32,000 nt of DNA from Candidatus Saccharimonadota bacterium (GTDB lineage: Bacteria; Patescibacteriota; Gracilibacteria; Absconditabacterales; Absconditicoccaceae): the NCBI GenBank assembly GCA_000503875.1, contig CP006913.1:210001-242000 (forward strand). The letters run 5' to 3'. Positions 20,062-22,204 of the stretch are shown here, one piece after another. The position numbers were made by a program, and so were the translations under genes. Position 1 is the first letter of the stretch. The number at the start of each line of letters is the position of its first letter. Under the pieces are notes generated by a model. That model saw nothing but the letters and a program-made list of their open reading frames with translations, had not been told where the DNA came from and ran no database searches.

Positions 20062-20574
20062 ATGGATCAACAAAATCAATTAGAAATACCGGCAATACCT
20101 GTTGGTATTCAATCTTCACAAGAACAATACGTCCCAAGCAGTGTCGAAAAGAAAAAAGCACTGATGATGTATTTTCTTTTTGGTATAATTATCGTTATCT
20201 CCAATAAGAAGGTCAATGATTTTGAATTTTTCCATGTAAAACAAGCGATGTGACGATGGATGGTGTTTATTTTAAGTATATTAGTCTCTACTATTATCTT
20301 ATTTATTCCTCTGATTAAAGTAGTAGGAATACTTTGGTTATTGATAGTAATGGGGATATTTATTTTCCTTGCAAAACAAGCATGGGACGGTAAATATTAT
20401 CAAGATGTAACTAAATATAGTTTAGGTATATTTCCTTCATTATGAACATGGCTATTTTGATTGTTTGGTATTAGTTTCAATGATATGGAGCTTAATCAAT
20501 CAATACAAAATCAACCGCCTCAAAGCCAACCGTCTCAACCAATACAAGACCAAAATAATCAAAATAAATCTTAA
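20062..20574 (+). CDS. DUF4870-like small membrane protein with Gln/Pro-rich tail, 170 aa (TGA=Gly)
   Basis: Track ORFs 20056-20253 and 20260-20445 are in frame; 3 TGA; TAA at 20572-20574. It has TM helices and the FFHVKQA motif I recall from that family. The tail is NQSIQNQPPQSQPSQPIQDQNNQNKS. It is inserted between rpsB and tsf. Confidence 0.55.
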
Positions 20575-20604: not shown

Positions 20605-21402
20605 ATGGCAATAGATATGACACTTCTCAAAAAATTGAGAGATGCTACCTTTGCTCCATTAGGAGACTGTAAACAAGCTCTTGAAGAAGCAAATGGAGAT
20701 TTCGATCAAGCTCAAGAAATTTTGAGAAAAAAAGGAATATTAAAAGCTGGTAAAAAAGCAGAAAGAGAAACTAACGAAGGTAATGTGAAACTTATCCAAA
20801 AAGATGGATGGTTAGCGGGGATTAAACTTCTTTGTGAAACAGATTTCGTAGCAAAAAACGAAACATTTGCAGAATTGATTGATCTTTTGTTAGAAAAAAT
20901 CATTGCTCATAAATCTGAAGTAACAAGTTTGGAAACAATAGATGCTGGATTATTAGAATCATTACAAACAATAATTGCAGAGTTTATTGGAAAAATTTGA
21001 GAAAACGTTCAAATTGGAGCTGTTATCTTAAACAATAAAACTGCATATGTATATAATCATCCAGGAAATAAAGTTGCTTCTATTATCTATTACGAAGGTA
21101 CAGATAATGGAATAGCTAAAGAACTTGCGTTACAAGTTGCTGCAATGAATCCAACATATCTTTCTTTTGATGATATTTCTACTCAAGAAAAAGAAGAATT
21201 GTTGACACAATATCGTGAAGAAATGGCTACAAGTGGAAAACCAGCAAATATTATTGACCAAATAATAGAAGGTAAATTAAGAAAAACATTGGGAGAATCT
21301 GTTTTGCTAGAACAAGAATACATTAGAGATGGAGGAAAAAAGGTAAAAGATCTTATCTCAGGTGATTTTGTAGTAAAATGATTCGTTAGGTTATCTATTT
21401 AG
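20605..21402 (+). CDS. tsf: Elongation factor Ts, 265 aa (TGA=Gly)
   Basis: Track ORFs 20605-21000 and 21145-21381 are in frame. The N-terminal UBA-like region is LKKLRDATFAPLGDCKQALEEANGDFDQAQEILRKKG. CETDFVAKNE and LALQVAAMNP are also present. Stop is TAG at 21400-21402. Confidence 0.92.
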
Positions 21403-21434: not shown

Positions 21435-22001
21435 ATGAAAAATTATGAACTTGTCTTGTTGTTGAATCCATCTGTTCAAGAAAAAGAACAAAAGGAATTT
21501 CTTGCAAGTTTGGAAAAAGAAATACAAAAGAATATCGTTGAAAAAGACGATATAGGATTGTTGACTTTGGCTCATGACTTGTGAGAAAAGAAATGAAACA
21601 ACAAATTTTATTTTGTGTCATATTATCTCAATGCAGATACAGATATTTCACAAAAAATAAATCAATTTCTTTTGTATAACAAAATAGTATACAGATATTC
21701 TTTGTATTCTATGAACAAAACAGAAACACCTCTTTCTTTTCAACAAACACAACAAGAAATGCAAAAAGTTATTGATGGACGAGTAGAAAAGAAGAAAGGA
21801 AACAAAATGACGTTTTTTACTAAACCAGAAAATGAAAAATACGTTTCTTGGAAATCATTACCTATGCTCAAAAAATATATGACGAGGTTTGGTGATATTA
21901 AACCAAGAAAATATACAGGAAACCCAGTAGGTGTTCAAAAAAACTTGAGAAAAGTTATTATAAGAACAAGAGAAATGGGGCTTCTTGAATACGTAAAATA
22001 A
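21435..22001 (+). CDS. rpsF-rpsR: Ribosomal protein S6 - S18 in-frame fusion, 188 aa (TGA=Gly)
   Basis: ATG 21435. The first ~95 residues are S6-like (MKNYELVLLLNPSV.., DIGLLTLAHDL-G-EKK-G-NNKFYFVSYYLNAD). The last ~65 residues are S18-like (YVSWKSLPMLKKYMTRFGDIKPRKYTGNPVGVQKNLRKVIIRTREMGLLEYV). I read it codon by codon; only two TGA codons and no TAA/TAG occur between the two parts. Confidence 0.8.
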
Positions 22002-22045: not shown

Positions 22046-22204
22046 ATGGCGAGTAAATTAAGAAGGGTTAGAAAATATTCCCGAAGAAAAAGACTCACTA
22101 AACACGGGTTTAGAGAAAGACTTCAAACAAAAAATGGTAAAAAGTTGTTAGCTAGAAGAAGAGCTAAAGGAAGAAAAAGCTTAACAGTTCAAAGAAAGAA
22201 ATAA
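22046..22204 (+). CDS. rpmH: 50S ribosomal protein L34, 52 aa
   Basis: [48 protein letters not shown] matches the L34 consensus (HGFR.R..T..G..vL.RRRaKGRk.Ltv). It is absent from the ORF track because it is shorter than the cutoff. Confidence 0.9.

Follow-up and report, generated by a model that had tools for sequence, protein, structure and literature searches.

The bacterial ribosomal proteins bS6 and bS18 are canonically the separate products of rpsF and rpsR (e.g. PDB 1G1X, 1FJG, 3J9W). The two proteins form a heterodimer before binding the complex of S15 with the 16S central domain. Most bacteria carry the two genes in an rpsF-ssb-rpsR(-rplI) operon, with the order rpsF-priB-rpsR-rplI in E. 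coli. Fusions involving ribosomal proteins are known from eukaryotes, where eS31 and eL40 are made as ubiquitin-ribosomal-protein fusions and the chaperone-like non-ribosomal moiety is cleaved off. Here, we describe an rpsF::rpsR fusion in a stretch of DNA of 32,000 nucleotides (the window, 32% GC), whose nearest genomes are Absconditabacteria / SR1.

The two domains of the fused protein are recognizable by sequence and predicted fold, and the role and binding site are expected to be the same as for canonical bS6 and bS18. The fusion differs in being one covalent chain, and its S6 half is divergent, with an extra C-terminal helix and no acidic tail. The rpsF-ssb-rpsR order was seen in the code-25 locus L061 and the Dojkabacteria locus L070, the only loci with a detectable ssb. 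L061 keeps this order at the same position between tsf and rpmH as the fusion, whereas the fusion loci (the window and 59 relatives) encode one ORF without ssb and the fusion locus shows no detected rpsF 5'-leader RNA. Directly adjacent rpsF and rpsR genes (L062 and L064; L065-L071) resemble the fusion in having no gene in between, and the S6 of L062 and L064 carries the same C-terminal helix. At these loci, however, the two genes are kept apart by a stop codon and 50-200 nt of spacer, and the frame changes between them. As in the eukaryotic fusions, a ribosomal protein is made within a fused precursor, but S6-S18 joins two neighbouring ribosomal proteins and nothing indicates cleavage. The fused state is kept under selection while the parts are separate in relatives, as in a "Rosetta-stone" type fusion of interacting partners. 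The suspicion that this arrangement departs from the bacterial norm was well founded.

Fused proteins are already public, as a rule under the name S18 alone, and the few clusters with a name read either "30S ribosomal protein S18 [Ca. Absconditabacteria]" or, at JGI, "ribosomal protein S18/ribosomal protein S6". No published account of an S6-S18 fusion was found in the three papers covered. A survey of CPR ribosomal proteins describes bS6 as "large" in CPR with the fusion unmentioned (Tsurumaki 2022, PMC9297842). The fusion is likewise unmentioned in the Vampirococcus genome paper (Moreira 2021, PMC8080830) and in ribosomal-protein phylogenomics (Yutin 2012, PMC3353972).

The fused reading frame, its genetic code and conservation

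Codon-by-codon reading of 21435-22001 (+) yields one frame of 188 sense codons, running from ATG 21435-21437 to TAA 21999-22001 (Table 1). The sequence-only reading had proposed this frame, with two TGA codons as the only stop-like codons on the way, and the two TGA listed in Table 1 are indeed the sole ones. Read with the standard bacterial table 11, the frame splits into pieces of 49, 32 and 128 aa. With TGA as Gly, Pfam Ribosomal_S6 (PF01250) matches residues 3-89 (E 1.2e-7, 32.3 bits, cutoff 27) and Ribosomal_S18 (PF01084) matches residues 134-184 (E 2.8e-10, 40.6 bits, cutoff 21), the latter covering profile positions 2-52 of 52. The NCBIfam S18 model TIGR00165 matches residues 123-188 with 39.8 bits, above its cutoff of 38.75, over profile positions 5-69 of 70. 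The S6 half reaches 23.8 bits against the equivalog TIGR00166, below the cutoff of 42.9, and is therefore a divergent S6. The precomputed Pfam match to S6 is also missing in about 10 of 47 orthologue clusters. At least 50 PDB chains of S18 match residues 119-187, with residues 9-76 of 3j9w_AR as the best match (E 3e-7). Conserved residues of the basic S18 set kept in the fusion are K156, R158, Q168, K169, R172 and R179. The ORF, both domains and the clade-wide conservation described below support S6 and S18 being encoded as a single in-frame polypeptide, as initially proposed.

Table 1. Features of the fused gene and its immediate neighbours, in window positions.
Feature	Position	Strand	Basis or remark
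tsf (EF-Ts), upstream neighbour, 32 nt before fusion	20605..21402	+	Synteny
Complete fused rpsF::rpsR gene	21435..22001	+	188 codons and TAA stop, code 25
bS6 core, residues 1-94, beta-alpha-beta-beta-alpha-beta	21435..21716	+	PF01250, AF2, Foldseek
In-frame TGA, codon 50, read as Gly	21582..21584	+	Codon alignment and rpoB comparison
In-frame TGA, codon 54, read as Gly	21594..21596	+	Codon alignment
Lineage-specific S6 C-terminal extension, residues 95-117, including helix 102-116	21717..21785	+	Alignment of separate S6, AF2
Fusion junction, residues 118-122 (EKKKG), probably flexible hinge	21786..21800	+	AF2 low pLDDT, ends of separate proteins
bS18, residues 123-188, essentially full-length	21801..21998	+	TIGR00165, PDB S18 matches
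Internal ATG (Met125), non-conserved	21807..21809	+	Codon alignment of 60 orthologues
rpmH (L34), downstream neighbour, then rpoB, rpoC	22046..22204	+	Synteny, all loci

In-frame TGA codons also occur in housekeeping genes of the window, with 16-17 in rpoB and nine in rpoC. RpoB was compared with a solved RNA polymerase beta subunit (8i23_C), setting an X at each TGA. In the aligned C-terminal third, nine out of 11 TGA positions coincide with Gly, including sites in the universally conserved motifs AIFGEK, VGDKMAGRHGNKG, NPLGVPSRMN, QQPLGGK and DDVVGR. No TGA position coincides with Trp. Aligning 60 orthologous fusion genes by codon placed Gly codons of other genomes in the TGA columns (64% weighted). 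At columns 42, 154 and 183, TGA alternates to 100% with Gly, and the column of codon 54 contains TGA in 23 and a Gly codon in 15 of the 60 orthologues. TGA is never swapped with TGG in this alignment, the two TGG columns being free of TGA. These comparisons show that the organism reads TGA as glycine (genetic code 25). The earlier remark that both TGA codons sit at Gly-compatible S6 positions is borne out by the alternating Gly codons in orthologues and by the TGA sites on Gly in rpoB.

The fusion is conserved well beyond the window. A search among 5.8 billion protein clusters matched 47 clusters with 36-96% identity, nearly all 185-190 aa long and covering the whole query. A scan of loci, with one genome per GTDB species, recovered an uninterrupted code-25 ORF of 185-189 codons at 59 loci (L001-L059). 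The same unbroken ORF in 59 other species-level genomes excludes chance, and answers positively whether the fusion is conserved in related SR1/Absconditabacteria genomes. The gene order common to all loci is L10, S2, a small membrane protein, EF-Ts, the fusion, L34, rpoB and rpoC. The sequence-only reading had also raised the prospect of orthologues encoded as two genes. The two genes are fused throughout the SR1/Absconditabacteria relatives examined but separate in the code-25 loci L061, L062 and L064. Among 60 species, the sole interrupted fusion gene is that of a related MAG (L060:3817-4400), where a frameshift falls within the joining region. Compared to the closest relatives, the frameshift is a 1-nt deletion in a run of five A and probably reflects an error in the MAG consensus or assembly. 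Pairwise Nei-Gojobori estimates from 195 moderately diverged pairs put dN/dS at 0.31 in the S6 core and 0.40 in residues 95-122, with S18 lowest at 0.19. The 60-sequence alignment contains no indels between residues 95 and 122, which together with the dN/dS of 0.40 points to purifying selection on the joining region in the fused frame. The fusion is real and lineage-wide across all SR1/Absconditabacteria relatives examined.

The small predicted membrane protein upstream of tsf (window 20062-20574, +) has about 170 aa and a Gln/Pro-rich tail, with no Pfam match. Its gene separates rpsB from tsf, which normally neighbour each other, and is kept there in essentially all of the 60+ related loci, unfused outgroups included.

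The junction and the formation of the fusion

AlphaFold2 was run with a 46-sequence alignment on two proteins standing for the window protein. The TGA-free orthologue P0016 was modelled with a mean pLDDT of 90.1 and a pTM of 0.84, and P0001, 96% identical to the window protein, with 89.3 and 0.83. The S6 part contains strands at 2-11, 34-44, 57-67 and 85-93 and helices at 16-33 and 69-79. The resulting beta-alpha-beta-beta-alpha-beta order (ferredoxin-like) of the S6 fold is present in both models, with the S18 helices following after the junction. Foldseek against the PDB retrieved S6 chains only among the best 50 matches (probability 1.0, target TM-score 0.7-0.85). In the sequence search of the PDB, no chain matched both halves. 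Several of the S6 alignments span 110-120 columns and hence reach the C-terminal extension. Helix 102-116 is confident in both models (pLDDT 95-96 for the block 101-110). The dip in confidence is confined to about residues 111-130, with pLDDT below 50 at 118-121 only (P0016). The high pTM argues that the S6 and S18 halves are modelled as one compact packed unit.

The segment between the two cores had been described as a linker of about 30 aa, which the comparison with unfused relatives overturns. Three code-25 loci carry separate genes at the tsf-rpmH position of the fusion. In L061, rpsF (135 aa), ssb (137 aa) and rpsR (66 aa) are separate genes. In L062 and L064, rpsF (127 aa) ends in a stop codon, and rpsR (67 aa) lies beyond the spacer in a different frame. 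Aligned to the fusion, the S6 proteins encoded separately at these three loci match across the supposed linker up to about residue 120, as do the stand-alone S6 proteins P0071-P0076. The fusion extension and the S6 of unfused relatives have the pattern F-x-F-x-x-[LV]-x-x-x-[LF]-x-K in common. In a profile search covering 1.84 billion representatives, S6 occurred as a stand-alone protein of 114-150 aa in dozens of cases, matching profile positions 1 to about 120, and several of these proteins end in an acidic tail. The S18 homology starts at about residues 119-123 of the fusion. The S18 of L061 begins at window residue ~123 (MAKKSYFNKDNEYLINWKS vs NKMTFFTKPENEKYVSWKS), and window residues 119-187 align to residues 9-76 of B. 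subtilis S18. Since S6 relatives align through the supposed linker, helix 102-116 is confidently modelled and S18 begins at about 119-123, the true junction has about five residues. The segment is instead largely the ancestral C-terminal helix of S6. The fused protein is a lineage-typical S6 (core and C-terminal helix, with the acidic tail gone), about five residues and a near-complete S18.

The simplest history would be a single deletion, as judged from the gene orders of fused and unfused loci. The ancestor would have carried tsf-rpsF-ssb-rpsR-rpmH, encoding an S6 already equipped with the extra C-terminal helix and an acidic tail. The deletion would have removed the acidic tail and stop codon of S6, ssb and the start codon of S18, joining the S6 helix to the S18 N-terminus via about five residues. 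Whether this happened once is less clear. In an rpoB tree rooted on L062/L064, the 50+ main fusion loci form one clade in 200 out of 200 neighbor-joining bootstraps. A more distant fused relative (L072:6001-6567, protein P0047) shows the synteny L10-L12-S2-tsf-fusion-L34-rpoB. The main clade, L072 and the unfused L061 can branch in three ways, which were recovered in 37, 101 and 62 of 200 replicates. With the replicates split over the branching order, the fusion may have had more than one origin or may have been lost once. P0058, a protein of 208 aa with three members on eight contigs, is another distant fused relative with the synteny of L072; it resembles P0047 and carries about 20 extra residues inserted exactly at the junction.

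Product of the fused gene

We consider an inherited rpsF/rpsR fusion, created by deletion and producing one chain that serves as both S6 and S18, to be the main reading of the locus, with a probability of roughly 85%. Translation would start at the first ATG and read both UGA codons as Gly, giving one chain of 188 residues. From this single chain, the 30S platform would receive both S6 and S18. Once S15 is in place, the chain would attach to the 16S central domain as a ready-paired "heterodimer" of strict 1:1 stoichiometry, and the covalent linkage would spare S6 and S18 their bimolecular pairing step. Homology suggests binding to the 16S central domain, as do the basic residues conserved in the S18 part. 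The chain would stay uncleaved and would be the sole source of S6 and S18 in the genome. HMMs of S6 and S18 built from the fusion alignment detected no second copy of either protein in the 32-kb window or in any of the ~12-kb loci.

The alternative that survives best is a single precursor cleaved at the Lys-rich flexible junction (~118-122) into an ordinary S6 and an ordinary S18, in which case the fusion would only guarantee 1:1 synthesis. The junction is the sole low-confidence and presumably exposed segment of the models, it tolerates the ~20-residue insertion of P0058, and cleavage is familiar from the eukaryotic ubiquitin fusions. Yet the length of the junction is constant in 60 genomes, and its KKxGxK motif is a conserved piece of the N-terminus of S18. 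Neither a protease nor a processing signal was found. Nothing requires cleavage because the C-terminus of S6 and S18 are modelled as a compact unit (pTM 0.83-0.84). We regard cleavage as improbable, and retain the uncleaved chain as the preferred product.

Even less likely is that free S18 is additionally made by internal initiation at Met125, as the sequence-only reading had suggested. The window does have an ATG at residue 125 with an AGGA 9-12 nt upstream. The column of Met125, however, holds ATG in only six of the 60 orthologues and a start-type codon of any kind in 14 (GTG in six and TTG in two), with ATT, GTT, ATC and similar codons in the others. Residues 112-130 lack any ATG in 46 of the 60. 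Motifs resembling a Shine-Dalgarno (SD) sequence (GGAG, GAGG or AGGA) were found within 20 nt upstream of none of the 15 confident gene starts in the window, including 18387, 19389, 20605, 21435, 22046, 22301 and 26109. Since genuine starts lack such motifs, the AGGA before ATG 21807 is merely the coding sequence of a conserved Lys-Gly. No terminator-like site and no promoter-like signal in excess of shuffles was found inside the fusion or between tsf and the fusion. In these alignments, an internal start that would yield free S18 is not conserved, and the full-length chain remains the expected product.

The same stretches contained no Rfam family or rpsF leader, and the 32-nt gap behind tsf leaves no room for such a leader. 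The absence of SD-like motifs at gene starts suggests SD-independent initiation in this organism. The leaders before the gene starts of the window are AT-rich.

The weakest alternative, an assembly or sequencing error joining two genes or a TGA that is a true stop splitting the frame, could draw on the breaks at codons 50 and 54 under table 11 and on the frameshifted L060, but is effectively refuted by the unbroken ORF shared by 47 protein clusters and by 59 species-level assemblies of independent origin, selection operating in the fused frame, TGA standing for Gly in rpoB and orthologues, and the L060 shift being a 1-nt loss in an A5 homopolymer.

The fusion is modestly surprising and leaves the understanding of ribosome function unchanged. 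S6 and S18 are the classic example of two ribosomal proteins obliged to pair before they bind rRNA. A natural, lineage-wide single chain shows that the S6-S18 pairing step can become covalent, and the fusion provides a ready-made construct for studies of 30S platform assembly. The fusion is a clean synapomorphy of the SR1 clade. How it formed, including the displacement of ssb from its usual place, is documented by the relatives that keep the genes separate at this locus. Given the NCBI name "S18" and an S6 half below the NCBIfam cutoff, bS6 may score as missing in automated marker surveys of SR1 genomes. Mis-scoring bS6 as absent would affect estimates of completeness based on marker genes as well as claims of reduced CPR ribosomes.

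Further S6-S18 fusions and look-alikes

The profile search identified a second family of S6::S18 proteins with 194-196 aa (P0125, P0204-P0208; L073:5001-5591, L074:4149-4739). Genes of this family are located downstream of lexA-mutS-mutL in DNA of 40% GC using the standard code. The family recurs on several contigs and samples, with an identical protein in two independent samples, and the nearest named MutS shares only 37-40% identity with the neighbouring MutS. As in SR1, S6 is followed by S18 in one ORF. The sequences of the two families are unrelated beyond the shared domains though, and the junction of the second family is acidic. Going by these sequences, the second family would most simply be explained by an independent fusion. 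A broader proposition is that covalent bS6-bS18 is the only form across SR1/Absconditabacteria, stays uncleaved in the ribosome and arose independently in at least one other lineage, which we hold to be slightly better than an even bet. If true, the fusions would represent a recurrent, undescribed simplification of 30S platform assembly.

Eight additional candidates for S6-S18 fusions (P0116, P0128, P0136, P0155, P0167, P0176, P0179 and P0189) are singletons found on one contig each. Their sequences are proteobacteria-like, Bacteroidota-like or of other character. These candidates could be rare real events, or errors of assembly or gene calling. Marine gammaproteobacterial MAGs and SAGs (L065-L071) were considered as distant fusions and rejected, as a stop codon and a shift of frame separate the adjacent rpsF and rpsR. 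Searches by tblastn had merged both genes into apparent full-length matches. At these loci, rpsR immediately follows rpsF with neither priB nor ssb in between.

Two minor observations concern other proteins. In a relative, the called protein P0114 (114 aa) continues from S18 directly into L34 (…LLPYIRQEVNQRIYTLHTTMASKLNRVRKY…), through either a read-through in gene calling or a further local fusion. At the start of the window, a partial ORF (1-768, +) with 11 in-frame TGA and a signal-peptide-like N-terminus has a weak EGF-like match under the Pfam cutoff as its only match. Behind this N-terminus, the encoded protein has four or five Cys-rich repeats of ~40 aa (…YGSNSYY.STS..C.C..GYEL…).
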